A DNA stretch of 64,000 nucleotides from Blastocatellia bacterium (GTDB taxonomy: Bacteria; Acidobacteriota; Blastocatellia; UBA7656; JADIYM01). The number at the start of each line of letters is the position of its first letter. Position 1 is the first letter of the stretch. The notes under the pieces were generated by a model. That model ran no database searches. It was not told the origin of the DNA and saw nothing but the letters and a program-made list of their open reading frames with translations. The stretch is from positions 35,319 through 99,318 of the forward strand of contig JAJTWZ010000003.1 in NCBI GenBank assembly GCA_021463145.1. Reading direction: 5' to 3'. The position numbers and the translations under genes are program-made. Shown here piece by piece: positions 33,232 through 60,383 of this stretch.

Positions 33232-34194
33232 GTGAATCGATCGAAGCAAGGTGGTGAACCCAGTGGCATAGTCCTCAGGCGGGCCGCCGGTCTTCCGGTT
33301 TACCTTCAGTTGGTTGACCAGTTCAGATACTTGATTGCCGCCGGTCGCTTCCGCGTAGGTGAATACTTGCCCCCGATGCGACAGATTGCGGACGAAATCG
33401 GGCTCAACTTGAACACGGTCCTTCGTGCGTACTCCGAGCTTCAGCGCGACGGACTCATTCGGAGTACGCGCGGGAAGGGCGCCGTGGTTATTCGCAGTGC
33501 CCCAGTCGTCTCGCCGCCCGCGAATCCTGGCGCGGAGGGCTGCAGCGATTCCATCGACGAAATCATTGCGACCGCAGTCGAACGGGCATTGTCGGCTGGA
33601 TTGAACCCGTCCGATGTTCTTGCTCGAACGCAAGCGGCCATCGATTCAGCCGGGACTCGGGCGCCGACGGGGCCGGCGGTCGTGGTACTGGCCGCGCCAG
33701 TCTGGCGCGCGCGTGTTTTCGCCGACGCGCTTCGCGCTATCGGCCTCGGGCGCGTGCGCGCCGCTTCCCCTCAGGGTGCAATTGCCGCGAACGAGATAGT
33801 CGTTCTGCCGGTGTTCGGAGTTACTGCCCCTGAAAGCGATGCGGTCGGCGCGCCGACATTGACTGTCAGCGTGCAACTCGACCGGGCCTCGATCAGGGAG
33901 TTGCTCGAGCTCGACCCCCGCGCGGTCGTAGCTGTAGTGGCAGGCGATGAGGTCGCGGCTAAATGGCTCTCGGATGCCGTAGCGGGCTATGCCGGCAGTG
34001 CAAGGATCAATCGCTTAGTTGCGGAGACGCAGGCAGAGGCTGAGGTGGGGGAGGCGTCAGTTGTGGTGGTGGAGGCCGGAATGCCGAACGGGGGTCGTCT
34101 GATATCGGCTGCGCGGCTAATCATGGCCGGTGTCTCGATTCCGATCTCGTTCGCGGAGTCACTCGGAGAGTTGGCAGAGACGCTCAAGCAGTAG
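33232..34194 (+). CDS. GntR-family transcriptional regulator
   Basis: N-terminal winged-HTH typical of GntR (LPPMRQIADEIGLNLNTVLRAYSELQRDGLI). GTG start. The C-terminal domain is unclassified. Confidence 0.7.
   Translation: MNRSKQGGEPSGIVLRRAAGLPVYLQLVDQFRYLIAAGRFRVGEYLPPMRQIADEIGLNLNTVLRAYSELQRDGLIRSTRGKGAVVIRSAPVVSPPANPGAEGCSDSIDEIIATAVERALSAGLNPSDVLARTQAAIDSAGTRAPTGPAVVVLAAPVWRARVFADALRAIGLGRVRAASPQGAIAANEIVVLPVFGVTAPESDAVGAPTLTVSVQLDRASIRELLELDPRAVVAVVAGDEVAAKWLSDAVAGYAGSARINRLVAETQAEAEVGEASVVVVEAGMPNGGRLISAARLIMAGVSIPISFAESLGELAETLKQ
33843..33858. repeat. 16-bp GC-rich palindrome, 15/16 copy (GGTCGGCGCGCCGACA), inside GntR gene
   Basis: Read directly from the sequence. Frame GTC GGC GCG CCG ACA (VGAPT). 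Confidence 0.9.
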
Positions 34195-34334
34195 CCGCGC
34201 TAGTGTGCCTCGCTTGGGGCGCTGAGGATTAGTGGCCGGTCCAGGCCTGCGCGAGGCGCGAACTCTGCTGACCTTGCCGGCGCGTAAGTGCGGGCGTGTT
34301 GAATGAAGCCGTCCTGGCGCCCGACCTTTTTTCG

Positions 34335-34378
34335 TTGACGGCTGACCTGCGGTCGGTTATTTTCCGACCAGCGGTCAG
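34335..34378 (+). promoter_or_regulatory. putative promoter overlapping a nested palindromic operator upstream of the TetR gene
   Basis: TTGACG, a 16-nt spacer, then TTATTT. This overlaps CTGACC-tgc-GGTCGG-ttatttt-CCGACC-agc-GGTCAG (34342-34378), a nested inverted repeat. Confidence 0.35.
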
Positions 34379-34393
34379 TAAGCGAGGTAAGCG

Positions 34394-35068
34394 GTGGCAG
34401 TTTCGATCCGACAGAGAGCCCGCAACACCGAGCACAAGTTGGAGCGACGTGAAGCGTTGCTCGCGGCTGCTCGCGAGATCTGGGATCTGGGCTCCTACGA
34501 GTCCACGACGATGGCCGGAATTGGTCAACGTGCCGGCGTGTCAAAGGCTACGGTATACCTGTATTTCGACACCAAGGAGCAACTTCTGCTCGAGATACTT
34601 CGAGAGAAGCTCGAAGACTGGTTCACGGCGCTCGATGGCGCGCTGGATTCGTCGTTCGGGTCCTGGAGCAGTGATCGCGCGGCGCGAGAGATAGCGCTCT
34701 CGTTCGAGGGGCGAAGGTCGCTCGTCCGACTCCTTTCGTCGCTTGAATCCGTTATCGAGCACAACGTCGATGTCGACACGCTTCGTGTCTTCAAGCGATG
34801 GTTTGCCGGCCGGACGTCGGCAACGGGGCAGCGGCTCGAACGTCGGCTGACGTTTCTGCGTCAGGGAGAGGGCGTCCACCTGATTCTTCAGATTCGCGCG
34901 TTTTTGCTTGGCCTTGCGATGCTCTCGGCGCCGTCACCGGCGACCGAGCGGGTGATCGCCGACGACCGGAGTCTTGCGCTTTTCGCGCTCGACTTCGATC
35001 GCGAGTTCACGGACGGACTCCGAACGCTGTTTCGTGGCTACGAGGCGGGCGGATCCGCTTCTGGTTGA
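34394..35068 (+). CDS. TetR-family transcriptional regulator
   Basis: N-terminal TetR HTH (ESTTMAGIGQRAGVSKATVYLYFDTKEQLL). GTG start, close to the RBS and possibly leaderless. Confidence 0.75.
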   Translation: MAVSIRQRARNTEHKLERREALLAAAREIWDLGSYESTTMAGIGQRAGVSKATVYLYFDTKEQLLLEILREKLEDWFTALDGALDSSFGSWSSDRAAREIALSFEGRRSLVRLLSSLESVIEHNVDVDTLRVFKRWFAGRTSATGQRLERRLTFLRQGEGVHLILQIRAFLLGLAMLSAPSPATERVIADDRSLALFALDFDREFTDGLRTLFRGYEAGGSASG

Positions 35069-36924
35069 CCTCCGGGCGTGGCCCATTAGTTGAGCAGTCG
35101 CACGCCCTTTGCCGATTTAAGAACTGGCGACTTGCGGCGCCTTAATTTACGTGGAACCTGAGATCTGCGTCGCTTGCTGCGCCTCTCTGAGAAGTTACTT
35201 CCAGTGAGCGAAGGCATCTAGCTCTCTTCTATTGATTTTCCCGGCGTCGCTGGCGATGGAGAGAAGGGAAAGGGCGCTCAAACCGGTGTATGCCAGGAAG
35301 GTTCCTACCTGAGATCAAGACTGGAGGACGCGTGACCCCGGTCGGGGTTGAGCCGCACGACCGGATCCGCTCTCGGTGAATGCCCGCATTTCGATTCCGG
35401 TGGCCATTGCGCCTCATCCTGGATGCTTCTCGAGGTGCAATGCAGATCAGCCGCCAGCTACAGCTGGATCAGGCACCTGGATCGAAACTGTTCAGTTGCT
35501 GGTGCGCAACCTGCCTTCATCGGACGCGACTCGGCTGGCAAAGGCCATTGCGTGTCCAGCCGTTTCGTGCGCAACATCGAGTGATACTTGATTTCCTGAC
35601 CAACAACTAATCGCAAACAAAAGCGAACTGGCAGTTAATGCGTGATCGTGAGGCCGGCCTTCATCGACCGAGAGCCACCTGATGACGCGATACAGGGGGT
35701 TCGGCCGGGCAGGGACGGCCCATTTTCGTGCATTACCGCAATAGTCACTATGGCCTGCATTTTGGAAAGCCCGCGGATTGGCGACCCGCCGTCTCGGGCG
35801 ATGTTGGGAGGCAAATGCCGGCGTCGGTGCGTGCGACCAGGGCGGAACGTCTCGGTCAGTTCGGCGACTTTCAGGATCTCTGACGTTCGGCGAGATTCTA
35901 GCGATGCACTCGCACGAGTGCGTGAGCTCAAGAGCCTGGCCGGAAGTCAACTCCGGCGATCGGAAAGGCCTGTTCTCGCGAAAAACCGGAAACGCCTGCG
36001 TTGCGAAGTCGATTACGGTACGAGGCGCGAAGACTGGCGCGAGGAGCCTGCCGGGCCACCAGCGGCCAGTCCTTGTAGCCGTTTCCCCGAATGCAGCCGT
36101 GGTGACTGGGAATGACGGCACCCGCAAAGGATCGAGCGGAGAGATCGATCGCTGGTTGCTATTCAGGTGCAGGCAGCAGACAGGCTGCTCTTGTGCTGAG
36201 CGGAGTGCGCCTCAGTGCCGTGCACTGAAGGAACAAGGTGATACTCGAGTTTGGGATGTGAGATTCTGAGGGGCTCGATGTTGAACTTCTCCAGAGAGAC
36301 AAGGGCGGACTGAGATGCAGACTGGACCGCCTTGCGGTCGGAATCTGCTGGAAGTGGGTCGCAGTTAACCGAATTGTCTCGCTCGGACCACCCGGCTCCG
36401 CTTCGACAGGTGGCTCGAGCAGGAGAGCAAGAGACTCGAATTCGAGATCTGCGGGCAAAACGGTTAAGTGACCGATCGAGAACCGGACCAACTCTGATGG
36501 CTCAGCAGGCGAGGTTTACGCCCCGATTTACCGCGTGCCGTCGCTTTGTCTGGACGCGGGCGCAGATTCGAGCGCCGCAGCGCTCAGCAAGTTGGGATGA
36601 CTCGCGGCCACGCGTGCACAGCGACCGCGATTCCGATGCCTCTAATCGGCGCGAGGCCCGAACTGGGAGATCCCTCAAACGCGCCCGGAGCTTCCAGTTG
36701 CGGACTTTGCCGCCACGGGAATCTCCCAGCCCGAGTGCGCCTCGATCCCAACGGGGACCGACGGAAATGAAACTATCGCCCCGGCGCGCGACTCAACGCA
36801 GCGCACGACTCGGGAATCACGAATGAGCTCGAGCAGTGAAGTTCAACGAGAGATAGGTGTGCACACGGCCTACAGGTTGGCCGCATATCGGATGACCAAG
36901 CGCCCCCCTTCGCTTCAGAATCAA

Positions 36925-36940
36925 TGTCGGCGCGCCGACA
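36925..36940. repeat. 16-bp perfect palindrome TGTCGGCGCGCCGACA, non-coding copy in gene-free block
   Basis: Read directly. The flank caaTGTCGGCGCGCCGACAgcgccgtgg resembles the flank of the copy at 40980. Confidence 0.95.
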
Positions 36941-37555
36941 GCGCCGTGGCTGAGTCCCGGCGAACGCCACTGGGATTGTCAGCTTGCGTCAATCGTTTCT
37001 ACTCGGGTGCTTCGACATGTGGCAGTCGGGAGTGTGGCGGGAGAGGGAACTCGGACCGGAACGACAGGGGGTTGATCGCCGTGTGCCTGAGTAAGGAGTC
37101 GTATTTCAATCCGGCACGTGCACGGCAATGATCGTGTGTGGCAATGTGTCCTGACACTAGGCCGATGCTCTCTCTCAATGTCCCCAAAGTGCACCCCGAC
37201 CCCGCTGAGAGGGGGTGCTCAACTGCACCGAAGACCATCAGCAATCCGTCGCAGTTGACTCGCCGTCAACCTGGGACGGGCTCGTCAGGTTCAGATTGCG
37301 GATTGGGATCCAAAAACGGCAATGATGGCCGACATGTTGAGGCGCTTCGGTTCGCGTGGCACTAGAGGATCAGAGGCGAGCTGAAATGCTATGACGCCGC
37401 TTGAGTGTGCGTATAGTAAACTGCTGCCGTGGAACGCGAAAACGTATAGAGCTCTGGCGGAACTTTAAGTCGGATCAAGCCGGTTCCGCGTATCGGAAAT
37501 CGAACTCTGGTCTCCCTAAGAGGCGGTCGAGCGCTTAAACTCCCCGGCAATTCAG

Positions 37556-38329
37556 TCAGAGTGTACGCGTCTGACCGCCATCGACATCGACTATCGAGCC
37601 GTTGCAGTAGCCGGCGGCCTCCGAAGCCAGGAATGCAACGACGCGCGCTACCTCATCAGGCTCTCCAAAGCGTGAAACGCGCAGGGCGCCGGCTATTGCC
37701 TCCGCCGCCTTGTGCTCGTCGATGCGGCGCTCGTTCGCCGTGCTCGAGACGCGCGCCTTCAGCCTCTCGGTGGCAATCGAACTCGGATTCACGGCGTTCA
37801 CGCGCACGCCGTCGCGAACGCCGCGATCGGCGAGAGCCTTCGTAAGATTGAGCAAGGCAGCGTTTACGGATCCGCCGATGGTGAAATCGGCACTTCCAGT
37901 TCGGCCACCGATTCCCACAACGTTCACGATCGAACCGCGAGTCGCCATCAGATGTGGCCAGGCGGCACGACTGCAACGTACCGCACCCCTGAATTTCAGC
38001 GAGAACCCCAGATCCCACTCCTCGTCCGTCAGTTCAAGAAAGTCCCCTCGCCTGGTGTCTCCGGCATTGTTTACGAGGATGTCGAGTCGCCCGAAGTGGC
38101 GAATTGCCGATTCAACTGCTCGCTCAGGCTCGCCCGGTTCTCGTAGATCCATCGAAATCCGGAGGTTCGGCGATTGGAGCACCTCGCCAAGCGCCTCGAG
38201 TGCGTCGGCCGATCGCGCAACTAGAACAACCAGTGCGCCTTCGCCGGAAAACGTTTCAACAATCGCACGACCTATTCCGCGACTGGCGCCGGTGACTAAA
38301 GCAACTTTTCCGGAAAGGTGTAGATCCAC
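37556..38329 (-). CDS. SDR-family short-chain dehydrogenase/reductase
   Basis: TGxxxGIG (VALVTGASRGIGRAI), NNAG and catalytic S…Y..K-like motifs. 257 aa. Confidence 0.8.
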   Translation of the reverse strand: MDLHLSGKVALVTGASRGIGRAIVETFSGEGALVVLVARSADALEALGEVLQSPNLRISMDLREPGEPERAVESAIRHFGRLDILVNNAGDTRRGDFLELTDEEWDLGFSLKFRGAVRCSRAAWPHLMATRGSIVNVVGIGGRTGSADFTIGGSVNAALLNLTKALADRGVRDGVRVNAVNPSSIATERLKARVSSTANERRIDEHKAAEAIAGALRVSRFGEPDEVARVVAFLASEAAGYCNGSIVDVDGGQTRTL

Positions 38330-38491
38330 GGGTCCGCCAACAGGGCCGACTCCGGTGGGCTTTGTCGGCGCGCCGACACCTCGAAGAGGAGTCGTGGAAA
38401 ATCGCAGGAGTAGGGAAGAACGGGGGGCCGCCTGGGCACCGGATTGGAAGGAGGCCGTCGGAAACGGCCCCCTTCGTCGACAAACTCCGGA

Positions 38492-38941
38492 CTAGAACGG
38501 AATGTCGTCGTCGCCGATCGTGTCATTCGCGGGCGGAGGGTTCTCACGCGAAGGCGCTTGCGATGCGCCCCGATTTCCACCAGATGCGCCTGCGGCCATC
38601 TCGTCACCGCGCGATCCGATGAACTGCATGTCGGTGCCGTTGACTTCGAGGCTCGTACGCTTGTTGCCTTCTCGGTCCGTGTATTCACGTTGGCTCAGCC
38701 GGCCTTCGATGTAGACCTGACGACCCTTCGTCAGGTATTGGTTCGCAAGCTCTGCCTGCTTACCCCAGAGCGAAACGCGAAACCAGGTAGTGATCTCGTC
38801 AGTGTCTCCACCGTCGCGGCGTCCTTTGCGTTCCGACGTAGCTATCGAGAAATCGCAAACAGCCGTCCCTGACGGGGTGTAACGCAATTCGGGATCGCGC
38901 CCGAGATGACCGACGATCGTGATCTTGTTGAATGAAGCCAT
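38492..38941 (-). CDS. ssb: single-stranded DNA-binding protein
   Basis: OB fold (NKITIVGHLGRDPELRYTPSGTAV…) and an acidic C-terminal tail ending in DDDIPF. Confidence 0.9.
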   Translation of the reverse strand: MASFNKITIVGHLGRDPELRYTPSGTAVCDFSIATSERKGRRDGGDTDEITTWFRVSLWGKQAELANQYLTKGRQVYIEGRLSQREYTDREGNKRTSLEVNGTDMQFIGSRGDEMAAGASGGNRGASQAPSRENPPPANDTIGDDDIPF

Positions 38942-39046
38942 ATCTTCCTCCGCTGCTATCGTGGCGCCTCTCGGCCGTCAATCTAACAGAGCCTCGCACG
39001 GCCTGTCCAACGCGCGCCTGTGTTAGACTGCGCGCTCCATGCCCGT

Positions 39047-40979: not shown

Positions 40980-40995
40980 TGTCGGCGCGCCGACA
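40980..40995. repeat. 16-bp perfect palindrome TGTCGGCGCGCCGACA, intergenic copy (recN-miaB spacer)
   Basis: Read directly. Flank caaTGTCGGCGCGCCGACAcgcccggtgg. Confidence 0.95.
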
Positions 40996-41136
40996 CGCCC
41001 GGTGGTGCTCGCGTTGCTGGCGCCTTTGCGCGCATCGTGGTAGACTGCGGCGCGTTTCCGGGCGACCACCACTGATTGTGACGGTGCCACGTGGAACATA
41101 CACTATCTCGTAGGTAGCTCCCGTTCGATCACGATC

Positions 41137-42612
41137 GTGCCCGTTCTCAAGCTTCCCGTCCTTGCGGGGCCATCGAGCTCCGATTCGGTCGCATTCGACG
41201 ATGCGCCCGTCGCCCGGATTTCGCGCGAATCGTGCGATCCGCGATCCAAGAGGCGAGTCTTCATCGAGACGCACGGCTGTCAGATGAACGTTCACGATTC
41301 CGAGAAAGCGTTGTCGCTTCTTGGACCGCTTGGATATTCGGAGACGGATGATCCGGCGCGAGCGGATCTGATTCTGCTTAATACTTGCAGTGTTCGCGAG
41401 AAGGCGGCCGAGAAGGTTTTCCACCGTGTCCGCGCGCTGACAGGGCAAGCCGGAGGCCGTGATCAGGTCGTGGGGGTGCTGGGCTGCGTTGCACAGTCCG
41501 AAGCGGAGCAGATTTTCGAGCGCGCTCCGGGCGTTCGCCTCGTTATCGGCCCGCAGGCAATTGACGGAATCGGAGAACTGCTCGGACAACTGGATCGTGG
41601 TTTCGAGCGCGCGCTCGATCTCAGGCAGGACAACCGCCCCGATTTCATCGACGTCGACGCCAGCGCCCGCAGGAAGGGCAGCGTCGCATTCGTCACTATC
41701 ATCGAGGGCTGCAACAAGAACTGCTCTTACTGCATCGTGCCTTTCACCCGCGGGCGCGAGCGTAGTCGTTCGATGGATTCTGTCGTAGACGAGGTTCGAG
41801 CATTAGGCGAATCGGGCTACAAGGAGATTCATCTCCTTGGTCAGAATGTAAACTCCTACGCGGCGTGGGTAGAAAGGCGCTCGGGGCGTAAGTTTGAGGA
41901 GAACGCCTTCCCGGAACTCTTAAGTCGAGTTGCGCGCGAGTCGGGGGTCAAGCGGATCAAGTACACCACTTCACACCCGCGCGACTTCTCGGAAGAGATC
42001 GTCAGGGTGATGGACGATAACCAGGAACTCTGTGACTGGATCCACCTGCCGGTTCAGTCCGGGTCGAATCGTACGTTGAAGCGAATGTACCGTGGATACA
42101 CCAGGGAGCGATACCTTGGACTGGTCGACTCGATCCGGAAGGCCGGGCGCGACTACACGCTCACGTCAGACATCATCGTTGGGTTTCCCGGCGAGACCGA
42201 CTATGACTTCGAAGAGACTCTCGATCTCGTTCGAACGGTCGAGTTCGACTCCCTTTACACTTTCAATTATTCGCCACGTCCCCATACACCAGCTGCCGAC
42301 TGGGGTGACGACGTCTTGCCCGAAGTTAAACGGGAACGATTCGACAGGCTTCTCGCATTGCAGTCGGAGATTCAGAATGCTCGCGCCCGAAGGACTTTAG
42401 GGTCGATTCATGAGGTCCTGGTCGATGGGAAATCGGCTCGTAACGAAAGCGACCTGACAGGGCATTCGACCTCTAACGCCGTTGTGAATTTCCCTGCGGT
42501 TCCTGGAATCGGTCCCGGAGACGTTGTTCCCGTCCAGATTACTGAAATTAAGGCGCATAGTCTGTTTGGAAAGCTCGCGCAAAACACGAACTTAGACGCC
42601 TTATCTGATTGA
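41137..42612 (+). CDS. miaB: tRNA-2-methylthio-N6-dimethylallyladenosine synthase (radical-SAM methylthiotransferase)
   Basis: UPF0004 domain (RVFIETHGCQMN), a radical-SAM CxxxCxxC (CNKNCSYC) and a TRAM domain. GTG start with a ~45-aa N-terminal extension. Confidence 0.85.
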   Translation: MPVLKLPVLAGPSSSDSVAFDDAPVARISRESCDPRSKRRVFIETHGCQMNVHDSEKALSLLGPLGYSETDDPARADLILLNTCSVREKAAEKVFHRVRALTGQAGGRDQVVGVLGCVAQSEAEQIFERAPGVRLVIGPQAIDGIGELLGQLDRGFERALDLRQDNRPDFIDVDASARRKGSVAFVTIIEGCNKNCSYCIVPFTRGRERSRSMDSVVDEVRALGESGYKEIHLLGQNVNSYAAWVERRSGRKFEENAFPELLSRVARESGVKRIKYTTSHPRDFSEEIVRVMDDNQELCDWIHLPVQSGSNRTLKRMYRGYTRERYLGLVDSIRKAGRDYTLTSDIIVGFPGETDYDFEETLDLVRTVEFDSLYTFNYSPRPHTPAADWGDDVLPEVKRERFDRLLALQSEIQNARARRTLGSIHEVLVDGKSARNESDLTGHSTSNAVVNFPAVPGIGPGDVVPVQITEIKAHSLFGKLAQNTNLDALSD

Positions 42613-43202: not shown

Positions 43203-43964
43203 GTGACGCCAGTAATTGCCGTAGCAAATCAGAAGGGCGGTGTCGGCAAGACCACCACGGCGATCAACGTCGCCGCGGGGCTCTCGCTCCTCGGAAAGCG
43301 CGTCCTGCTCGTCGACCTCGATCCACAGGCCAATTCGTCGATATCGTTCATCGACGCGAGTTCGATTGGACTGTCGATCTACGACTTGCTGACGGATTCC
43401 TCGATCACCGTGAGCGAGTGCACGCTGGCTACATCGGTAGATGGGCTCTTCGTGCTTCCGTCGCGGATCTCGCTCGCCAAAGTCGAAGCCAAGCTGATCG
43501 GGGAATTCGACGCGCCATTTCGGCTGAAGGACCGGATCGATCCCGTGCGGCACAACTACGACTTCGTTATCGTCGACACGCCGCCGACACTCGGGTTGAT
43601 AACCGTCAATGCCCTTGTGGCGTCGTCTCACCTCATAATTCCGATCCAGTCCAGTTATTTTGCACTCGAAGGCACTGAAGACCTGCTTGAAACTGTCGAA
43701 AAGGTCAAGCAGCGCCCAAACCCTAATCTGCAGGTGCTTGGCGTTGTCATCACGCTTCACGACAAGCGAACAACACTTGCCCGTGACATCTACAGGCAGA
43801 TCTGCGGCGTTTTCGGCGACAAGGTATTCGATACGGTCATTTCGAAATCGGTACGGCTCGAAGAGAGTCCAGCCTACAAGGAACCCATCTTCACCTTTGC
43901 GCCAACTTCGACTGGCGCCAACGAGTACGCCAAGCTCTGCCAGGAGGTAATTGCACGTGTCTAA
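43203..43964 (+). CDS. parA: chromosome partitioning ATPase ParA/Soj
   Basis: Deviant Walker A (KGGVGKTTT). GGAGGAGG RBS. GTG start. Confidence 0.9.
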
Positions 43965-44802
43965 GCGAGGTCTTCCGACGGATTTCAAGCTCCGCCACGA
44001 CCAGCATTATGTCGAGCAACTCGCAACGCGCTCGGTCGGCGCTCCTATCGGTCGTCTGGTGCCGATAGACAGGCTGGAGCCCAACCCGGGTCAGCCGCGC
44101 GTCGAGATTGGCGACCTCACGGAGCTCATCGCTTCGATCAAGTCAGTTGGCGTTCTCGAGCCTTTGCTCGTGCGGCCGGCCGAGATCGGCGGACGGTTCA
44201 TGATCATATCCGGGGAACGTCGCTACAGAGCGAGTCTCGCAGCGGGTCTGCAGGAACTTCCCTGCATCGAGATGCACGTCGACGACCGTACTGTCGCTGA
44301 GATTGCCCTGATCGAGAACCTGCAGCGCAAGGACTTGACACCTTTCGAGGAGTCCGAGGGACTCGAGGCACTGGCCACTCGATACGGCTACACGCACGAG
44401 ATGATCGCTCAGCGAATCGGCAAGTCGAGGTCGACTATCACGGAAGCTCTTTCGATCGCCACGCTGCCTGCGGACGTCAAGGACATGTGTCGGCGCGCCG
44501 ACATCTCCTCGAAGTCGCTTCTCCTCCAGGTCGTTCGATTGAAGGATCACGATCAGCAAGTTGCGTTCGTGGAGCGAATCCGAAAACAGGGAATGACGCG
44601 AGACGAAGCCCGCGCCGCCCGAAAGCCGGAGGCCTCGTCGCGGCCTCGACCTTATGAGTTCCGTTATCAGCCGACTTCCAGGGAGTTCTCGATTCAGTTG
44701 CGCTTCAGGCGCGCGGAAGTTTCCGACGGCGAACTGGCAGATGCACTTCGCTCGGCACTCCGAGAGGTCGAAGAGCGGTTGAACGGGAATGTGAAGGGCT
44801 AA
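43951..44802 (+). CDS. parB: chromosome partitioning protein ParB/Spo0J
   Basis: ParB N-terminal GERRYRA box and an HTH ([25 protein letters not shown]). Overlaps parA by 14 nt. Contains one copy of the 16-bp palindrome at 44488-44503. Confidence 0.9.
44488..44503. repeat. 16-bp perfect palindrome TGTCGGCGCGCCGACA inside parB
   Basis: Read directly. Frame TGT CGG CGC GCC GAC (CRRAD). Confidence 0.95.
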
Positions 44803-50938: not shown

Positions 50939-51487
50939 TCACTTGCCGGCTTTCTTTCGCGCCTGTTCGAGTTGGTACTTGCGAGCTGACTTCTGCCACT
51001 TCTCGAGATACGGCACGAGTGGACGGAAGAGCTTCGCGCGCCATCCGGACTGCCTGTCGCGCCAGACCTTGAAGTAGCGCTCTACGTACTCCCGAACCGC
51101 ACGTTCGATTTCCGGTCCCTTCTTCTTCTTGCTCGAGACCGTGACGAGGTAGTGCTGCGCGATCAGCGACATCACCGACTGTGCAATCATCGCCTTCAGT
51201 TGCGCCTTTGCCGCGAGTTTCTTGAACCAGTTCAGGTCGGGCGGCTGCAGCACCAGCAAGGCGATGTCGCCGAATGCCGAGGCCGCTCCGGGCTGTTTCG
51301 GCCGGTATAGAGCCGGCAGACCCTTGAGCAGGTCCTGGGGGAGCCTCGAATCCTCGATCCGATCAACGAACCGGATCTTGCTGAAACCCCGGAGGTGCTC
51401 GACCGGCAGGCATTCGATAGCCGCCTGAACCTGTTTCTCGAGATCCTTGACCTCGATCGATGCCTGATGCTCAATCCTGATCGCCAT
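50939..51487 (-). CDS. Lys-rich hypothetical protein
   Basis: 182-aa ORF with protein-like, K-rich composition that is atypical for a random high-GC frame. No recognisable motif. Confidence 0.45.
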   Translation of the reverse strand: MAIRIEHQASIEVKDLEKQVQAAIECLPVEHLRGFSKIRFVDRIEDSRLPQDLLKGLPALYRPKQPGAASAFGDIALLVLQPPDLNWFKKLAAKAQLKAMIAQSVMSLIAQHYLVTVSSKKKKGPEIERAVREYVERYFKVWRDRQSGWRAKLFRPLVPYLEKWQKSARKYQLEQARKKAGK

Positions 51488-51582: not shown

Positions 51583-54063
51583 ATGATGAAACACGTCAAG
51601 CTGTTACTTCTCGGCCTGTTTGCGTTTGTGGCGTTACTTTCCGTCTCTTTCTCGCAACGAGTAGAAGCGCTTTCGACCGGCCCGTTCCTGGAACGCACCG
51701 CTGCACCCGAGGAGCAGAATTGCACGGCCTGTCACCGTACATATCAACTGGATTCCGGACCCGGCCGGGTTTCGATCGAAGGACTTCCCAGTCAGTACGC
51801 ACCCGGTCAGACTTACCCGGTTACTGTCCGATTGTCTGATCCGGCCGCAAACATCTGGGGCTTCCAGATCACGTCGATCACCGATCAGGGAACTGCGGCT
51901 GGATTCTTCCAATCCAACACCGTCGCAATTGCTGCACTTGGTCCGTCGCAGAGACTCGGGCGTTTCTACGCGCAGCACACGGCAAACGGAACATACGGAG
52001 GCTCGCGTGGAGAGGTGGCCTGGTCCTTCTTCTGGAAGGCACCTTCTACCGATCTAGGTCCTGTCTCCTTCTATGCTGCCGGGAACGCCGGAAACGGGGA
52101 TCACACGGACTTCTACGATTACATTTATACAACTAACGTAACTATTGATGGATTAAGGCGATTGGTACGCATCAAGCTCGAGTCTCCGGCTGCCACGACC
52201 GGGCTGGGGTCAGGCGAGCACGTCGTGGTGCGCTGGAGTGCCACCGACGGCGACACAGCGGTTCCGGACCATTTCAGAGTTCTGCTCTCGACCGACGGCG
52301 GCGAGAACTACCCGACGGTTCTGGCCGACAACCTACCCTCGACCGCTCGCTCATTTGTCTGGACGATTCCTGAGGCACTGGTCACCCCCTATGCCCGCAT
52401 TCGAGTCGTGGTCGTCGACTCGGAAGGCAACGAGCGAACGGATCAGTCCCGAACCGACATTTCGATAGGACCGCTCGGCTTGACCGCGGCTACCGGCGTC
52501 GCCGATGCGCCGCTTGGAGGCGATTTCACTCGTCAAGCGTGGGCCGACGTCAATGGTGACGGACGCCAGGATGTCGTCGTTGGACGCAATGCGGGAGGTG
52601 TACTCCTGTATGTCCAGAACGCCGACGGCTCCTTTGCGGAAGCTACTGATGAGGCTGGGCTTACGATGCCGGGAGATATTCGCGCGCTCGCCTGGGGCGA
52701 CGCGGACGGCGATGGCCATCCTGACCTTGCAGTACTGGGCGTGAACGCAACCAGCCTTTGGCGCAACAATGGCGACGGAACCTTCGACAGTGTCGGCGCG
52801 CCGACATCGTTTCCGAGACAAGCTGATCCGCGTGCGGTCGTCTGGACCGACGTGGACCGGGATGGAAGACTCGACGTCGTTGCGGGCGGGCAGTCGGGCC
52901 TGTTTGCGCTTCACAACACCGAAGGCGGGTTCGAGGATGCGACATCGGCCTGGAACGCGCCTGCCGGCCCGGTGACCGGCATCGCTGCGGGGCCGAAGCT
53001 TCTGTTGGCTTCAGGTTCGAGCTTGAAGGTGATCGGTTTCGATGGCGGGCGTTTCCTGGACGAGACCGGCGCACTGGGAGATCCGGTCGCCTTTGGAGCA
53101 AGCGCCGTTGCGTGGGCCGATCTGACGGGCGACGGCTGGCTCGACATCGTGGCATCCGGCGCGTCCGGGAATGCCGTCTTCGCGGGAGTCGAAGGTGAGC
53201 TTCGCTACCGGAATGCGACGGCCGAGCTCTCGCTGGCTTCTCTTGCGGGTGGGAGCCGGGTGTTGCCGGCGGATTTTGACACCGATGGCGACGTGGATTT
53301 ACTAGTCTTCGACGTTGCCGGTGCGCCGCACGTCCTGCGAAACCGGGGTGTCTCCGGCTTCGACGATGTCTCCGGCCGATTCAGCTTCACGGGAGAAGTG
53401 ACCTCGGCCGCCTGGGTCGATCACGACGGTGGCGGGGCGGTCGAACTGAGCCTGACGACTTCCGATGGGCTTGGTGTTATGGCCAATCCCAGGTCGGGAG
53501 CCGGATCGATTCGAGTCCGTCCGCTTACGGACCTCGATGCCGATGCACACGCCGCTGACGCCGAACCCGACCGCGACGCAATTGGGGCGGTCGTGCGAGT
53601 CGACCTCGATGGCGACGGCGACTGGATCACGGGGCCGAAGATCGCAATTGTAGTGGAGCAGTCGGCATCGCCCGTTGTCGTGATCGGTGCAACTCTCGAG
53701 AGCGCAACGGTACGTGTCGATTTCGCGGACGGCGAAGGCCGTGAGGTGACGATCGAATCCGGTGCGCTGCCGGTTGAAGTTCTGGATCCAGACGCTCCAA
53801 GGGTCGTTTCCGCCAGGCCTTCGTCGACAGGGAAGAAGCTCACGGTCGACGGAATGGGGCTTCCGGCGACGGGGGGGCGCATTCTTGTTGGCTCGACAGC
53901 CTTGGCGAGCGTGAAAGCGCCCGCGCGCTTCGTCGGGTCCGACGGGACCAGCACTCGCCTGGTGGGTAAGGATTCGCGGCTCTCGCTCCTTATTCAGACG
54001 AAGCCGGTTGCCGTTCGCATTGAGCTCGCCGGCGTATTTTCGGCGCCGGTCGTGTTGCGGTAA
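51583..54063 (+). CDS. secreted VCBS/FG-GAP-like repeat protein with N-terminal CxxCH-containing domain
   Basis: Signal peptide (MMKHVKLLLLGLFAFVALLSVSF). An N-terminal CTACH. Numerous D.NGDG..D repeats (ADVNGDGRQDVVVG; GDADGDGHPDLAV; TDVDRDGRLDVVAG; ADLTGDGWLDIVA; ADFDTDGDVDLLV). The ORF is open from a TTG at 51556. Confidence 0.65.
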   Translation: MMKHVKLLLLGLFAFVALLSVSFSQRVEALSTGPFLERTAAPEEQNCTACHRTYQLDSGPGRVSIEGLPSQYAPGQTYPVTVRLSDPAANIWGFQITSITDQGTAAGFFQSNTVAIAALGPSQRLGRFYAQHTANGTYGGSRGEVAWSFFWKAPSTDLGPVSFYAAGNAGNGDHTDFYDYIYTTNVTIDGLRRLVRIKLESPAATTGLGSGEHVVVRWSATDGDTAVPDHFRVLLSTDGGENYPTVLADNLPSTARSFVWTIPEALVTPYARIRVVVVDSEGNERTDQSRTDISIGPLGLTAATGVADAPLGGDFTRQAWADVNGDGRQDVVVGRNAGGVLLYVQNADGSFAEATDEAGLTMPGDIRALAWGDADGDGHPDLAVLGVNATSLWRNNGDGTFDSVGAPTSFPRQADPRAVVWTDVDRDGRLDVVAGGQSGLFALHNTEGGFEDATSAWNAPAGPVTGIAAGPKLLLASGSSLKVIGFDGGRFLDETGALGDPVAFGASAVAWADLTGDGWLDIVASGASGNAVFAGVEGELRYRNATAELSLASLAGGSRVLPADFDTDGDVDLLVFDVAGAPHVLRNRGVSGFDDVSGRFSFTGEVTSAAWVDHDGGGAVELSLTTSDGLGVMANPRSGAGSIRVRPLTDLDADAHAADAEPDRDAIGAVVRVDLDGDGDWITGPKIAIVVEQSASPVVVIGATLESATVRVDFADGEGREVTIESGALPVEVLDPDAPRVVSARPSSTGKKLTVDGMGLPATGGRILVGSTALASVKAPARFVGSDGTSTRLVGKDSRLSLLIQTKPVAVRIELAGVFSAPVVLR
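52791..52806. repeat. 16-bp perfect palindrome TGTCGGCGCGCCGACA inside VCBS-repeat gene
   Basis: Read directly. Frame GTC GGC GCG CCG ACA (VGAPT). Confidence 0.95.
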
Positions 54064-54123: not shown

Positions 54124-55164
54124 TCAGGGTTCGTCGATCGCGGACTTCTCGAGTGACATTGCTCTCTCGAGACGGCGGACTGATTTCTGCAATTCGGGAA
54201 GTCTGTTGAAGACCGCCGAGGACTTGAGCCACGACCGATTGTCGATTGCCGGATAGCCAGAGACGAGTTTCCCGGCACTCACCGAGCTCGGAATTCCGGT
54301 TTGTGCGGTCGCAACGACGCCGTCGCCGATCTCACAGTGCCCGGCAACACCCACCTGGCCGGCAAGCGTGACGCCTCGCCCGACGGTTGTAGAGCCGGCT
54401 AGTCCAACCTGTGCGCAGAGAATCGTGTTCTCTCCGACGACGACGTTGTGCCCGATCTGCACGAGGTTGTCGATCTTGGCGCCAGTGCGTATGCGAGTCT
54501 CGCCAAAAGTAGCCCGATCGATGGTCGAACCTGCGCCGATTTCCACGTCGTCTTCGATTACTACGACCCCGAGCTGTTCGATCTTCTCGTAGTGACCGTC
54601 GGCGTCGCGCGCGAAGCCGAAGCCGTCGCTTCCAACCACCACGCCGGGCTGAAGCACGCATCGGTCTCCGATCTTCGTTCCTTCCCGGACGATGCACCCA
54701 GCCTGAATCACGGTGTCGCGGCCGACCTCCACACAGTCGTAGAGAACTGTCCGCGCGTGGATCTCCGAGCCATCGCCGACCGTAACGTGATCGCCGACGA
54801 CCACGAAGGCTCCCACGTGCGCCTCGTTCGACACGATCGCCGACGGCGCCACCACGGCCGTTTCGTGAATTCCAGTTGGCAGCCGACGGCGCGGATGGAA
54901 CACGCGCGTCGCGCGCGCGAAGTCGGCTCCAGGGCTTTTACTTATGAGGCAGGGAATCGGCGACTCTCCTGCGTGCTCAGGACGGCAGATCGCGGCAGAA
55001 GCCTGTGTTGTCGCAAGTGCCTGCACGTGCTTGGCTTCGGCGGTGTAGGTCAATTGTCCAGTTCGCGCGTCCGCGAGTCCGCCAACACCGGTGATCTCGA
55101 TTTCCGATGCGACGACACCGCCAACCTCGAGGCCCAACACCCTGGCCAGCTCAGTCAATTTCAT
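54124..55164 (-). CDS. lpxD: UDP-3-O-acylglucosamine N-acyltransferase
   Basis: LpxD N-terminal domain followed by hexapeptide repeats and a C-terminal helix. 346 aa. Confidence 0.85.
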
Positions 55165-55293
55165 TCTTGACGTCTCCCCGAAACGAACATATCGTCTGAT
55201 AACGCAATGGGTTGGCGCCGGATCAGAGGTCCGGCGCGAGTCGCCGCAAGACTACAGCCGTTTCCAGGACCTTACAAGGAGCCCCAAGAGCCG

Positions 55294-56175
55294 ATGCCGC
55301 GCGACCTCTGCAAGGACTTCCTTCGTTATCTTCGGGTTGAGAAGGGACTTTCTCCAAATACAATGGAGGCTTATGAGCGTGATCTTCTAAAGCTCATGAG
55401 CTTTGCAGCTTCCTGCGGGCGGGAAATTCTCACTATTGAGCGGGCCGACCTGCTTAACTTCATCCGATCTCTCAGGGAAAGCGGCCTCGAGCCGCAATCC
55501 TGTGCGCGCACAATGGTTACCGTTCGTAACCTCTACAAGTTTCTCATCCTGGACGGTCACATTCACCACGATCCGACGGTGAATATCGAGACACCCCGAA
55601 GCTGGCAGACACTGCCGAAGTTCCTGACTCGGGAGGAGGTCGACCGTTTGCTCGAGGAGCCGGATGTAACAACGGACGTGGGACTTCGTGACCGAGCGAT
55701 GACCGAGCTGTTGTATTCATCAGGGCTCCGAGTCTCCGAGATGGTGTCCCTGAAGCTTTCCGACGTCGATATCGACGCCGGACTCGTCACGTGTCTTGGA
55801 AAGGGATCGAAGGAACGCCGGGTGCCGGTAGGCAGTGCGGCAATCGAGGCAATCCGTCGATACCTCCCGGCCAGGCGTCGAACCGTTGGCGATCGCAACG
55901 TCGAGCAACTCTTCGTGACGTCTCGGGGCACTCCGGTGACACGGCAGATCTATTGGAAGCGTCTCGTCGAATATGGCGAACGCGCCAAGCTTGGCCGTGT
56001 CACTCCACACATGTTGCGCCACACGTTTGCCACGCACCTGCTGGAGCACGGTGCCGATCTACGGTCGGTTCAGATGATGCTCGGTCACAGCGACATTTCG
56101 ACGACGCAGATCTATACGCACGTAACGAACGAACGGCTGCGCGAGGCGTACCGCAAGTTCCATCCGCGAGCCTGA
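55294..56175 (+). CDS. xerD: tyrosine site-specific recombinase XerD
   Basis: Phage-integrase fold with the R…HxxR…Y catalytic motifs (LRHTFATHLLEHGADLRSVQMMLGHSDISTTQIYTHV) and a XerD-like C-terminus ending in …HPRA. AAGGAG RBS. The ORF is open from 55207. Confidence 0.8.
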   Translation: MPRDLCKDFLRYLRVEKGLSPNTMEAYERDLLKLMSFAASCGREILTIERADLLNFIRSLRESGLEPQSCARTMVTVRNLYKFLILDGHIHHDPTVNIETPRSWQTLPKFLTREEVDRLLEEPDVTTDVGLRDRAMTELLYSSGLRVSEMVSLKLSDVDIDAGLVTCLGKGSKERRVPVGSAAIEAIRRYLPARRRTVGDRNVEQLFVTSRGTPVTRQIYWKRLVEYGERAKLGRVTPHMLRHTFATHLLEHGADLRSVQMMLGHSDISTTQIYTHVTNERLREAYRKFHPRA

Positions 56176-56181
56176 CATCAA

Positions 56182-58986
56182 ATGAGCGCACTTGGTGTTT
56201 CCGAACTGGCAACGATCGGGGAAGCGCTCGTCTCCATCGTTCCATTGCCATACATCGTCGCTGACGACGTCAGCTGGCGCGTAGTGCTGGCCAACGGACA
56301 CGCTGAAGCGCTCTACGGCGGTCCACTGGCCGGTGTCGCTCTCGAGTCGCTACTGACGCTTGGCGCCGAACGGGCCGTCGAAGGCACGATCTGGCGGGCG
56401 CAGACATCCGACGAGCCGGTCGAACTGTTTTTCGAGCGGCAAGACGGCAGTTCAGCGGAGGTGCTGGTGCGGGCGCATCGCCTGGATCTGAACGGCTGTA
56501 CGGCGTCTTTAATTGTGCTCGAGGATGTATCGCGTGTCCGCCTGCTGGCGCGAAGCCTTGCGCACGCGGCCACGGAGCGCCGTGACCTGTTCGACGCGTT
56601 GGGACTGGGCGTCGTCGAAATCGACTCGACCGGACGGATTCTGGCTCATAACGGATTCGGGCCGATCGAAACGCTGTTTCCGAGCGGTCTGGCCGGTCGG
56701 AACTTCTTCCGTGACGTCGCAGCCGGATCCGGTCCCGTAGAAGTCCTCCGGCAATACGAGCTCTGGACGTCGGCGATCATCGACGCGCCGTTCCGAGCTC
56801 CATTCGAGTTCGAGCTAGGCCGCCATTTCATTGAAGCGGAGATGCTGGCCGGTTCCTTCACGACCTGCGATGCGATCGTGCGCCTTTCGGACGCGACTTT
56901 GCGGCGACAAGCGGAGGCCGAACTGCGGCAGCAGACGGCGCAGGCCGAAGAAGCTGCTCGCCGGTCGCGACTCGTCTACCAGACTACGAGCCTGCTCCAT
57001 CAGACGCTGGACCTCGACACCGTGCTCGCCACTGCCGTCGAGGAAACTGGCAGGTTGCTCGGGGCGTGTTGTTGCCAGATAGCGTTCGTCGACTCGCTGG
57101 GTGACGTGCGAATCGCGCACGAGTACCTTCGTTCTCCTCGTGAAGTCACGCAGGGACTGGTTGCGGCGTTCGACCTTTTGCCCGCCACGGCAGAGGCAGT
57201 CCGAACGTTGCTGCCCGTCGTCGTCGAGCTCTCGAACGCAGCGGCCTTCCAGTCCGACTCGGGGATGCGCGGGCGCTCCGGGGCCGCGTCCGCAATCGTG
57301 GTGCCGATCGCAGTGAGGCGGGAACCGTGTGGCGTGCTTGCCATTCTCCAGTCGGACAAGACGAGGTCGTGGACCGAAGCGGACATCGAGCTTGGCGTCT
57401 CTGTCGCGGCGCAAGTAGGCCTTGCCATTGGTCATTCGGAGATTCATGAACGGTTGCGCCTCCAGGCGGAACGCGACGCGATGGTTGGCCGCTTCGCCGT
57501 CGCGATTCACGCGGCGCCGTCGCTCGACGAAGCGCTCCGGCGCGCCGCCGAACTGCTGTTGACTCAAACCGAGTGCGACGGGGTGTCCGTTCGTTGCCGC
57601 GATCCGCGGCTCAGTCACGATCGCACCTGGTGTTGGGACGTTGCGCCCGATGGAGCCGTTCGTAGCGTGGATCCAGCCGTGTGCGAGCTCGCAGACAGGA
57701 CGCGCCGCGTGCTTGACGGCGAGGCCGCGGACGACGATCCGGCGATTGCGTTCTCGCCGTTCACGGCGCGGGACGGTGTGCTTGGCCTGCTTGCGATCCG
57801 CTTTCGGCGAAGTATCGGCAGCACTGACGTTCAAGCGCTCGTCGATGCCGTGGCGGTTCACGTCGGAATCGCTGTTGGAGCCTCGACGCTGCTCAGCACG
57901 GTCACCGAAGCTCAGAAGGTCTGGGAGGGCGCATTCGATGCGCTTCCTGATGGCGTCGTCGTCGTCGACCGCTCGATGTCGGTCCTCCGATCGAACCGAG
58001 CGCTGGCGTCCCAGCTCCGCGCGAAGCCGTCGACGATGATTGGACAGCGGCTGCTTGGGTTTTTCTCGGATACGATGGCCGACGCGATCGCGAACGCCGT
58101 CGGGTTGGTCGACTCCGGCCGCAAGCCGGTGCAGGTCGAAGTCGAGGATTCGTCACTCTGCAAGTGGTTCGCTCTTTCGGCGTCTCGGTTGCCGATGTCG
58201 GATCAGGATGCCTTCATTCTTTCTATTCGTGACGTCACACGCGAGCGGACGATCTCGGAGAACCTCGCTCAGTCAACCAGGCTCGCGTCGATCGGGCGGC
58301 TGGCAGCGGGAGTCGCGCACGAGATCAACACGCCGCTTGCGACGATCGCGGGATCGGCGCAGTCATTGGACCGGCAGCTTTCGTCTATCGCCGAGTTGCA
58401 GGAGTCGGAACGCTGGCAGTCGATCCGCGAGCGAATCGACGCGATCGTCGAGCAGGCGTTCCGGTGCAAGAGGATCACGCGAGACCTGCTCGATTACGCC
58501 GCTCCTACGAGACCCAAGTTTCAGGAATGTTCGATTGCCGCCGTCGTCGAAACGTCGATAAATACAATTGCGCGCGAGCGCGGAACGGAGCGGATCACCG
58601 TGACCGAGAAGGGAACCGCCGCGCCAGTATTCACCGATCCCGAGCGAGTCGCACAGGTCCTGATCAACCTCGTGGCGAACGGTCTGGATGCGATCGCCGA
58701 GAAGCCGAAGGGCAGGTTGTCGGTCGAAATCCGGCACCTTCTTCGCGAGGTGCGCTTGGCGGTTCGAGACACGGGCTCCGGAATCTCCCCAGCAGACAGA
58801 GAAAGGATTTTCGAACCGTTCTTCACGACAAAACCGCCCGGTCGCGGCACAGGTCTAGGTCTCTCGATATCGATGAGCATAGTGTCTCGACTTGGTGGAC
58901 GGCTGGAAGCGAAGAGCAGGCCCGGACGGGGTTCGACTTTTACGGTCACGCTTCGCCGGAACCGGCCCGGCGAGGAGTCAAACTGA
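56182..58986 (+). CDS. cytoplasmic multi-sensor histidine kinase (PAS/GAF, HisKA, HATPase_c)
   Basis: 934 aa with several PAS/GAF-like regions, H-box (AAGVAHEINTPLATI) and G-boxes (DTGSGISP; GTGLGLSIS). Confidence 0.8.
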   Translation: MSALGVSELATIGEALVSIVPLPYIVADDVSWRVVLANGHAEALYGGPLAGVALESLLTLGAERAVEGTIWRAQTSDEPVELFFERQDGSSAEVLVRAHRLDLNGCTASLIVLEDVSRVRLLARSLAHAATERRDLFDALGLGVVEIDSTGRILAHNGFGPIETLFPSGLAGRNFFRDVAAGSGPVEVLRQYELWTSAIIDAPFRAPFEFELGRHFIEAEMLAGSFTTCDAIVRLSDATLRRQAEAELRQQTAQAEEAARRSRLVYQTTSLLHQTLDLDTVLATAVEETGRLLGACCCQIAFVDSLGDVRIAHEYLRSPREVTQGLVAAFDLLPATAEAVRTLLPVVVELSNAAAFQSDSGMRGRSGAASAIVVPIAVRREPCGVLAILQSDKTRSWTEADIELGVSVAAQVGLAIGHSEIHERLRLQAERDAMVGRFAVAIHAAPSLDEALRRAAELLLTQTECDGVSVRCRDPRLSHDRTWCWDVAPDGAVRSVDPAVCELADRTRRVLDGEAADDDPAIAFSPFTARDGVLGLLAIRFRRSIGSTDVQALVDAVAVHVGIAVGASTLLSTVTEAQKVWEGAFDALPDGVVVVDRSMSVLRSNRALASQLRAKPSTMIGQRLLGFFSDTMADAIANAVGLVDSGRKPVQVEVEDSSLCKWFALSASRLPMSDQDAFILSIRDVTRERTISENLAQSTRLASIGRLAAGVAHEINTPLATIAGSAQSLDRQLSSIAELQESERWQSIRERIDAIVEQAFRCKRITRDLLDYAAPTRPKFQECSIAAVVETSINTIARERGTERITVTEKGTAAPVFTDPERVAQVLINLVANGLDAIAEKPKGRLSVEIRHLLREVRLAVRDTGSGISPADRERIFEPFFTTKPPGRGTGLGLSISMSIVSRLGGRLEAKSRPGRGSTFTVTLRRNRPGEESN

Positions 58987-60383
58987 TGCCGAAGGCGGCT
59001 GAGCGAATCGAGCTCGGGAGAGTGCTCGTCGTCGAGGACGATGACGCTTACCGACAATTCCTCGTCGCTGAGCTGCGCGATTTCGGATTTCCGGTCGAGG
59101 GTGCCGGCGACGGTCAATCGGCAGTCGCGGCAATCGAATCGACGTCGCCTGCGGTAGTACTGCTCGACATCAGGCTGCCTGGGCTCTCGGGAATCGATGT
59201 GCTCAGGCGGTTGGCCTCGAGCGCGGATGGCGGCCCGCAGGTCGTAATGCTCACGGGCCACGGCACTATCGACACGGCGATCGAGGCTATGAAGCTGGGC
59301 GCTTACGACTATCTGACAAAGCCCTGCGATCTCTCCGAAATGCGGGCCGTGATCGAACGAGCGCTGGAGCGCCGCGAGCTGCAGCGCGAGAATGCCGCGC
59401 TGCGAACGATCCTTCGCCGCAAGGAAGGTGAGGTCGAGCTCATTGGCAGAAGCCGAACGATGAACGATCTCGAGCAGCGCATCGCGAGGATTGCGCCAAC
59501 GGACGCGAACGTGCTTCTGATTGGCGAATCGGGCACCGGAAAGGAGCTCGCGGCGCAACTCGTACACCGGCACAGTCGGCGCGCCGACAAAGCCTTCGTC
59601 GACGTGAATTGCGGCGCCTTGCCAGAGACCCTGTTCGAAAGTGAGTTCTTCGGTCACGAAAAGGGGGCGTTCACCGGCGCAGCCAGCCGAAAATCTGGAT
59701 TGGTCGAAGCCGCGGACGGGGGCACTCTCTTCCTCGACGAGGTTTCGGAAATGCCTCAGGCATCGCAAGTCAAACTACTGCGATTTCTGGAAACTGGCGG
59801 GTTCAGGCGTCTCGGTGGCGTCACGCAGTTAACGGCAAGCGTCCGCGTCGTCGCTGCTTCGAATCGTTCGATCGAGTCCCTCATCGACGGCGGAGGATTT
59901 CGCCGGGATCTCTTTTTTCGCCTGGCCGTCGTCACACTGGAGGTGGCGCCGCTGAGGGAACGCCGCGACGACGTGCCGCTCCTCTCGGAGCACTTCATGC
60001 GGCGCGCGGCATTGGACACGGGCTGTCGTGTGAGTTCGATCGAGCCGGCTGCGCTGGATGCGCTTTCACGGTACGACTGGCCGGGCAACGTGCGCGAACT
60101 GAGGAATGCAGTCGAGAGCGCCGTCATTCTCTGCGACGGTAACATCCTGCGGCTAAGGGATTTGCCGGCACGCGTGCTGACTGGTCCGTCCCGGCCCGGG
60201 CTGTTGCCCGAACCGGGCCCATTCAGCGCAACTGCGATACGGACCCTTGCCGAGGTCGAACGCATGCATATCGAAGCGATGCTGGGATATTTCGACGGGC
60301 ATCGAGAAAGGACTGCACGCGCACTCGGAATCGCCACGAAGACCCTGTATCGAAAGCTTCGGGAATTCGAGGAGTCAAAATGA
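58986..60383 (+). CDS. sigma-54-dependent response regulator (NtrC family: REC, AAA+ sigma-54 activator, Fis-type HTH)
   Basis: GAGGAG RBS. The ATG overlaps the kinase stop. REC domain (VLVVEDD…VLLDIRLPG). Walker A GESGTGKE. GAFTGA sigma-54 contact motif. A C-terminal HTH. Confidence 0.9.
   Translation: MPKAAERIELGRVLVVEDDDAYRQFLVAELRDFGFPVEGAGDGQSAVAAIESTSPAVVLLDIRLPGLSGIDVLRRLASSADGGPQVVMLTGHGTIDTAIEAMKLGAYDYLTKPCDLSEMRAVIERALERRELQRENAALRTILRRKEGEVELIGRSRTMNDLEQRIARIAPTDANVLLIGESGTGKELAAQLVHRHSRRADKAFVDVNCGALPETLFESEFFGHEKGAFTGAASRKSGLVEAADGGTLFLDEVSEMPQASQVKLLRFLETGGFRRLGGVTQLTASVRVVAASNRSIESLIDGGGFRRDLFFRLAVVTLEVAPLRERRDDVPLLSEHFMRRAALDTGCRVSSIEPAALDALSRYDWPGNVRELRNAVESAVILCDGNILRLRDLPARVLTGPSRPGLLPEPGPFSATAIRTLAEVERMHIEAMLGYFDGHRERTARALGIATKTLYRKLREFEESK
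59574..59589. repeat. 16-bp palindrome, 15/16 copy (AGTCGGCGCGCCGACA), inside sigma-54 activator gene
   Basis: Read directly. Frame CGG CGC GCC GAC (RRAD). Confidence 0.9.

Follow-up and report, generated by a model that had tools for sequence, protein, structure and literature searches.

The 64-kb stretch of DNA analysed here (the window) comes from the metagenome-assembled genome (MAG) of a soil acidobacterium, which its ParB homologs place in Blastocatellia (Acidobacteriota). It carries the adjacent genes parA and parB, and around them are repeated copies of a 16-bp perfect palindrome, TGTCGGCGCGCCGACA. Sites of this form are familiar from chromosome partition: parS centromeres are 16-bp palindromes that are clustered near parAB, commonly lie inside open reading frames (ORFs), and often include one copy within parB (spo0J) itself. 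An initial sequence-only reading of the window had proposed that the palindrome is a non-canonical parS, served by a ParB with an altered recognition helix. The analysis described below supports that proposal through the clustering of the sites, their conservation at the DNA level, their linkage to parAB, and the covariation of the site with the ParB helix.

Copies of the palindrome in the window

The window was searched for TGTCGGCGCGCCGACA with up to two mismatches allowed, and 100 dinucleotide-preserving shuffles served as the null. Nine matches were found (five exact, three at 15/16 and one at 14/16; Table 1). The shuffles gave 0.20 ± 0.49 matches, and none of the 100 reached nine. The centre-free form TGTCGGCNNGCCGACA produced eight matches with up to one mismatch, against 0.03 expected, and the 14-mer core GTCGGCGCGCCGAC occurred seven times. 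No other 16-bp perfect palindrome recurred in the window. The sequences around the copies were unrelated from one copy to the next, and the repeat unit is therefore the 16-mer alone; an extended repeat unit was rejected, as the flanks had no sequence in common. Functionally, the motif is taken to be TGTCGGC-NN-GCCGACA, and in the window its two central bases are GC.

Table 1. Matches to the palindrome and the partition genes in the window
Feature	Position	Strand	Context
15/16 copy TGTCGGCGCGTCGACA	599-614		in FtsJ/TlyA-like methyltransferase gene, 44 kb upstream of parB; outlying degenerate candidate
15/16 copy GGTCGGCGCGCCGACA	33843-33858		in GntR-family gene, frame gives VGAPT
Exact copy	36925-36940		unannotated small ORF, or non-coding; also at this position in L007 and L008 (near-identical contigs)
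Exact copy	38363-38378		SDR/ssb intergenic; syntenic with L001 (4275)
Exact copy	40980-40995		recN/miaB-like intergenic; syntenic with L001 (7019), L009 (7028) and L010 (7010, one central mismatch)
14/16 copy TGTCCGCGCGCTGACA	41427-41442		in miaB-like gene; mismatch in each arm, doubtful member
parA	43203-43964	+	Soj-type P-loop partition ATPase, 253 aa; AAA_31 (8e-58), CbiA, MipZ
parB	43951-44802	+	283 aa; ParB_N (GERRYRA, ENLQR) and HTH_ParB with variant recognition helix
Exact copy	44488-44503		in parB, codons C180-R-R-A-D-I185; same codons in ~28 other loci
Exact copy	52791-52806		in FG-GAP repeat protein gene; syntenic with L001 (18818), L009 (18392) and L010 (17293)
15/16 copy AGTCGGCGCGCCGACA	59574-59589		in sigma-54 response-regulator gene

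Seven of the eight good copies (at least 15/16) were located between −10.6 and +15.1 kb of the copy in parB. Five of the eight are in annotated protein-coding genes and a sixth, at 36925, is in a small unannotated ORF. Two frames are used: the motif reads C/S-R-R-A-D in parB, the sigma-54 response regulator and the small ORF, and V-G-A-(P/S)-T where it falls in GntR, FG-GAP or FtsJ-like coding sequence. The other two good copies, 38363 and 40980, lie between genes. Canonical parS (tGTTNCACGTGAAACa) was not found in the 64-kb window, where the top matches reached 12/16, at 41083 and 8981. The palindrome shares 6 of its 16 positions with the canonical consensus, these being the outer TGT/ACA only, and lies outside the canonical sequence class.

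These results agree with most of what had been read from the sequence alone. All six copies then listed were recovered at their positions, namely the exact ones at 36925, 40980, 44488 and 52791 and the 15/16 ones at 33843 (beginning GGTC) and 59574 (beginning AGTC). The count was nevertheless too low, as the exact copy at 38363, the 15/16 copy at 599 and the 14/16 copy at 41427 had been overlooked. The repeat had rightly been held not to be due to chance, to cluster near parAB with one copy inside parB, and to be read in two frames within coding genes besides its intergenic copies; the absence of canonical parS from the window, with a best match at 41083, had also been noted correctly.

By Pfam assignment, the genes run in the order GntR, TetR, small ORFs, SDR (−), ssb (−), recN, miaB-like, bifunctional nuclease, parA and parB. 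They are followed by a BNR protein, FG-GAP proteins, a multihaem cytochrome, lpxD (−), a XerC/D-like recombinase, a histidine kinase and the sigma-54 response regulator. The parA and parB genes overlap by 14 nt (43951-43964). The longest ORF for ParB starts with TTG, and public gene calls give a protein of 281 aa, two residues shorter.

Conservation and distribution of the motif

Relatives were fetched by their ParB protein, and not by the motif (L001 and L009-L012; ParB identity 89, 81, 78, 66 and 66%; GC content 52-68%). The exact 16-mer was present at the same parB codons in all five, and further copies occurred at the syntenic SDR/ssb, recN/miaB and FG-GAP positions in most of them. When the parB codons of the window and the five relatives were aligned, TGT CGG CGC GCC GAC A was invariant and neighbouring synonymous positions varied. 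Where the amino acids at the site change, to CRLADI in L135 and CRQADI in L145, only the two central bases differ and both 7-bp arms are kept. The invariance of the arms amid varying synonymous sites, together with the pattern in these two substituted loci, therefore indicates selection on the DNA. In P0080 (66% ParB identity; contigs of 1.6-1.7 kb only), parB reads CREAGI and has no internal site. In one further blastocatellial contig (L128, 3083-3148), the motif lies at the middle of a perfect palindrome of 66 bp, in which the 25 nt on either side are exact reverse complements of each other; this palindrome adjoins accA, and a second exact copy of the motif lies 111 bp away.

The exact 16-mer was also scanned over 185,579 GTDB species genomes. 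The scan gave at least 120 8-kb chunks, and the matches listed are the sample for all counts drawn from it. About 75 of the 120 chunks listed were from Acidobacteriota (Blastocatellia, Thermoanaerobaculia, Vicinamibacteria, Holophagales, Aminicenantes, Polarisedimenticolia and Acidoferrales), and the remainder were mostly single matches in high-GC genomes, as chance predicts. By tblastn, parA or parB was found in ~45 of the 120; by our own estimate, which assumes a genome of ~5 Mb, a randomly placed site would give ~0.2 such chunks. The motif was in or beside the parAB block in 16 of 17 listed chunks from Blastocatellia (Pyrinomonadaceae), in 8 of 10 from Thermoanaerobaculia, and in none of 25 from Acidoferrales (Terriglobia). 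Linkage to parAB is phylum-wide and reaches beyond Acidobacteriota, as linked loci were found on contigs of Cloacimonadota (L060, 28% GC) and Binatia (L071). In ~28 loci in total, the protein-selected ones included, the motif sits inside parB at the CRRADI codons, with ParB identity down to 40%. Elsewhere it follows the parB stop codon at a distance of 14-139 bp or immediately precedes parA.

Among the matches listed, parA (33 loci) and parB (32 loci) were the only gene families to recur beside the motif across lineages; its other recurrent neighbours reflect lineage-specific synteny. This bears on whether the motif could be the operator of a different DNA-binding protein, either a nearby GntR or TetR regulator or one found throughout the phylum, that stands beside parAB through gene order only. 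Palindromes of 16 bp are typical of operators, and genes for both GntR and TetR occur within the cluster. Most of the parA- and parB-linked loci lack GntR and TetR, however, most copies are in coding sequence and not in promoters, and the motif tracks the type of ParB helix exactly, as described below. With parA and parB as the sole recurrent neighbours, we consider such an operator highly improbable.

Some matches have a less certain origin. L014, labelled Heliomicrobium, shares the Acidobacteriota ssb/accA/dnaE block, and L122 (Dormiibacterota) shares the glyQS block; both MAG bins are probably contaminated. Two matches (L049 and L132) came from one alphaproteobacterial MAG (Dongiaceae).

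The distribution and sequence contexts were also compared with those of a REP-like dispersed palindromic repeat, or of an intrinsic-terminator hairpin, with no centromere role. Identical sequence across classes, and across genomes of 28-69% GC, is unlike both terminators and REPs, and the flanks are unrelated. Of the eight good window copies, five are in annotated genes, in two frames, and a sixth is in a small ORF, which argues in the same direction, as does the confinement of the listed Blastocatellia matches to the parAB block. The palindrome is GC-rich, the copies in Acidoferrales are flanked by A-runs and T-runs in the manner of a bidirectional terminator, and window copy 36925 meets a loose terminator pattern, all of which would suit a hairpin. 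The window as a whole, though, contained 4 terminator-like sites against 8.6 in shuffles. Terminator identity was rejected on this shortfall and because just one copy of the motif qualified, loosely. No Rfam families were found in the window or in seven Acidoferrales chunks, and ARAGORN found no tRNA in the window or in 12 chunks; a structured RNA or tRNA as the identity of the motif was rejected on these grounds. A dispersed repeat or terminator is the least probable of the explanations considered.

The ParB protein and covariation of its helix with the site

The window ParB matched Pfam families PF02195 (2e-23) and PF17762 (1e-17). It passed TIGR00180, with a score of 138.7 against a cut-off of 58.45, and failed the Noc equivalog model TIGR04285, with 145.7 against 315. 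Its N-terminal domain has GERRYRA and ENLQRKDL, and a weak match to the KorB domain was also obtained. Thermus Spo0J was the top match in the PDB (7e-37), and Myxococcus ParB was also among the best solved relatives; the window protein is 40-48% identical to these two over the core.

In the alignment, canonical GK(A/E)RSTVANALRLL...(A/M)GHARALL is aligned with the variant helix of the window protein, followed by S--KSLLLQV. In every lineage, xxTE..S and KSLLL replace VAN..R and GHAR in each ParB found next to the motif, giving a helix pattern of SRxx(I/V)TExLS plus KSLLL; the canonical pattern is SRSTVANxLRLL plus GHAR. In Caulobacter numbering, the contact residues G, K, S and R173 are kept in the window ParB. 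N178 is replaced by E (E165 in the window protein), R204 by S and Q162 by H, and G201 and H202 are deleted. E165 was invariant among 14 diverse variant ParBs. The parS-contact residues N178 and R204 are conserved across the ParB-to-Noc comparison (Jalal et al., PMC7383237), and the window ParB departs from the ParB family at both. Judged from the alignment, these two changes and the G201-H202 deletion mark a separate recognition class inside the ParB family. It is plausible that the retained K, S and R contacts read the shared outer TGT and that the changed residues read the new inner bases.

The lineage is large, as the TE helix occurred in at least 90 of the best 150 representatives at 50% identity. 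Among ParB-like representatives there were also other helix variants (P0299, P0314, P0331, P0340, P0356 etc.), reading SRTYVTKT, INETL or ITQTM, with KSxLL replacing GHAR. These proteins may have additional site specificities.

Covariation was examined in loci selected by protein. A metagenome scan with the ParB alignment gave 80 loci, 15 with the variant helix and 65 with the canonical helix. The GC-rich motif, with up to one mismatch, was present in 5 of the 15 variant loci and in none of the 65 canonical ones (Fisher p = 1.2e-4); with the centre free, the counts were 8 of 15 and 0 of 65. Canonical parS, with up to two mismatches, showed the reverse pattern, occurring in none of the 15 variant loci and in 33 of the 65 canonical ones (Fisher p = 2e-4). 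Co-occurrence of the motif with the variant helix was therefore exclusive. The variant loci without a site were mostly on contigs shorter than 5 kb, plus one Acidoferrum-type locus. In a 34%-GC contig with a variant-type ParB (L144, 3795-3810; helix GKSRVTITELLRITDL), the sequence TGTCGACATGTCGACA lies ~75 bp upstream of parA; as it has a symmetric change in both arms, it may be a sub-variant of the site.

The remaining points of the sequence-only reading can be assessed from these comparisons. The recognition helix it quoted was correct, and its suggestion that an altered helix goes with an altered site held in the protein-selected loci, where each site was confined to its own ParB type, the motif to the variant helix and canonical parS to the canonical one. 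It had proposed looking for the motif in related genomes; the motif is present there, with DNA-level conservation inside parB and at syntenic intergenic spots, to ~40% ParB identity. Of the observations that it had named as contrary to a centromere, an even, REP-like spread was not seen in Blastocatellia, where 16 of 17 listed matches were in the parAB synteny block, and no conventional parS was found near any variant-type parAB among the protein-selected loci.

A candidate parS of Acidobacteriota

The window system resembles the canonical Spo0J/ParB-parS systems of Bacillus, Caulobacter, Thermus and Myxococcus in many respects. Both have a 16-bp perfect palindrome with outer TGT...ACA, several copies around parAB with one in parB, a Soj-type ParA partner, and the same order of ParB domains, in which a ParB_N CTPase domain with GERRxRA precedes the helix-turn-helix. 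They differ in the inner 5 bp of each arm, which are CGGCG here and TTCAC in canonical parS, and in the ParB residues described above. Clusters of many, mostly intragenic copies within tens of kb of parAB are likewise known from Myxococcus, Corynebacterium and Streptomyces, although the parS sequence there is canonical.

Noc, which binds NBS (ATTTCCCGGGAAAT) in Firmicutes, is likewise a ParB-family protein with specificity for another 16-bp palindrome, and is a precedent for a switch in specificity through few changes in the helix-turn-helix and the following helix (PMC7383237). Noc keeps N178 and R204 and changes positions 173, 179, 184 and 201, whereas the window ParB keeps R173 and changes N178 and R204. 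Noc is also a paralog that coexists with ParB, without a ParA partner and with sites spread over the chromosome, unlike the window gene, which is paired with parA. Distinct palindromic centromeres matched to distinct ParB helices are found too in ParB2-parS2 of Vibrio cholerae, in Burkholderia c2/c3, and in KorB-OB. Such ParB/parS pairs of secondary chromosomes and plasmids serve to tell replicons apart in a single cell, and their ParBs fall in plasmid-like clades. The window system differs from these in having a conserved chromosomal context, ssb-recN-miaB-BFN-parA-parB, and appears to be the main chromosomal partition system across a phylum.

On this evidence, TGTCGGC-NN-GCCGACA is likely to be the chromosomal parS of this Blastocatellia genome, recognised by the ParB encoded at 43951-44802. 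The motif is very probably a variant form of the chromosomal centromere, paired with a ParB lineage that varies along with it. Binding of ParB to the motif, CTP-dependent spreading and a role in segregation would be expected from the homologous ParABS systems that have been characterised. A ParB dimer would set the variant recognition helix, and the KSLLL helix that follows it, on the two 7-bp arms. Binding of CTP at the GERRYRA/ENLQR N-terminal domain would then close the dimer into a clamp, which would slide off the site while further ParB is loaded across the ~26-kb cluster. The ParA ATPase would move the resulting partition complex, and this complex would probably load SMC.

Somewhat less firmly, we favour the view that a large ParB lineage has switched its primary chromosomal centromere to this GC-rich parS. 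The lineage would take in most Acidobacteriota classes, reach Cloacimonadota and Binatia, and comprise at least 90 of the best 150 clusters. With N178 changed to E, R204 to S, and GH deleted, it would stand as a third natural class of specificity among ParB and Noc proteins; N178 and R204 are DNA contacts that otherwise do not vary in either protein. In the searchable literature outside the parS survey of Livny et al. (2007), for which two acidobacterial genomes were then available, we found no description of the motif, of the variant class, or of an acidobacterial parS.

Several points weigh against identification as the chromosomal parS. For the copy in parB, conservation of the CRRADI peptide is a partial confounder. 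The window contains no dnaA and its cumulative GC skew rises monotonically; the replication origin therefore lies outside it. A second, canonical ParB/parS may be present elsewhere in the genome. The Acidoferrales also depart from the expected arrangement. No parAB was contained in any of their 25 listed motif chunks, two of their parAB loci (L136 and L213) have no motif within 10 kb, and a 3.7-Mb contig has matches separated by as much as ~2.4 Mb, which is looser than a classical parS cluster.

The Acidoferrum-type ParB carries the variant helix. In about ten Acidoferrales species (L056, L110, L016 and ~7 others), three to four exact copies are clustered at recO-glyQ-glyS-ppdK, for example at 4582-7657 in L110; other copies are in long non-coding regions with A-run and T-run flanks. 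A parS cluster that has moved away from parAB would account for this pattern. A broader role in regulation or organisation is compatible with it as well, and the pattern hints at a role that has been rearranged or extended. Direct repeats of ~74 nt, up to 93% identical, were seen beside the motif in non-coding Acidoferrales DNA (L078, 1560-1900; also L091, L059, L065 and L090). They are not tRNAs and had no match in Rfam.

It could be asked whether ParB binds the motif mainly for a purpose other than segregation, acting like KorB or Noc to regulate genes or organise the nucleoid, its sites being operators or organising sites. Sites that are far from parAB, often intergenic with AT flanks, and spread over megabases, as in Acidoferrales, would suit such a protein, and so would the weak KorB-domain match; a site directly upstream of parA, as in some lineages, would suit autoregulation. 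In the window and in Blastocatellia, however, most sites are in unrelated coding genes and are concentrated around parAB. The ParB shares a transcript with a Soj-type ParA and retains the CTPase motifs, it fails the threshold of the Noc model, and no membrane-targeting helix or second paralog was seen. A main role outside segregation is thus unlikely, though less so than the operator or dispersed-repeat explanations.

To our knowledge, canonical parS is regarded as nearly universal on bacterial chromosomes, and genome-wide prediction of parS depends on it. A parS of the present type, if real, would explain failed parS detection in Acidobacteriota and allied lineages, and the motif would give a means to locate partition complexes and likely SMC-loading sites there. 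The lineage may also serve as a natural experiment in the evolution of specificity. As the variant uses N178 and R204, which are conserved in the ParB-to-Noc work, it falls outside the known four-residue code. It would further add an orthogonal ParB/parS pair for DNA-labelling systems.

Two other genes near parAB recur among the relatives. An ORF of 182 aa (50939-51487, −) is also called in L001-L003 and L009-L012, where it has no recorded Pfam family. A gene for a XerC/XerD-like tyrosine recombinase (55207-56175, +) occurs also in L011 (12658-13607) and L012 (11690-12577); its distance downstream of parAB ranges from a few kb to ~10 kb in the window and in these distant Blastocatellia relatives.

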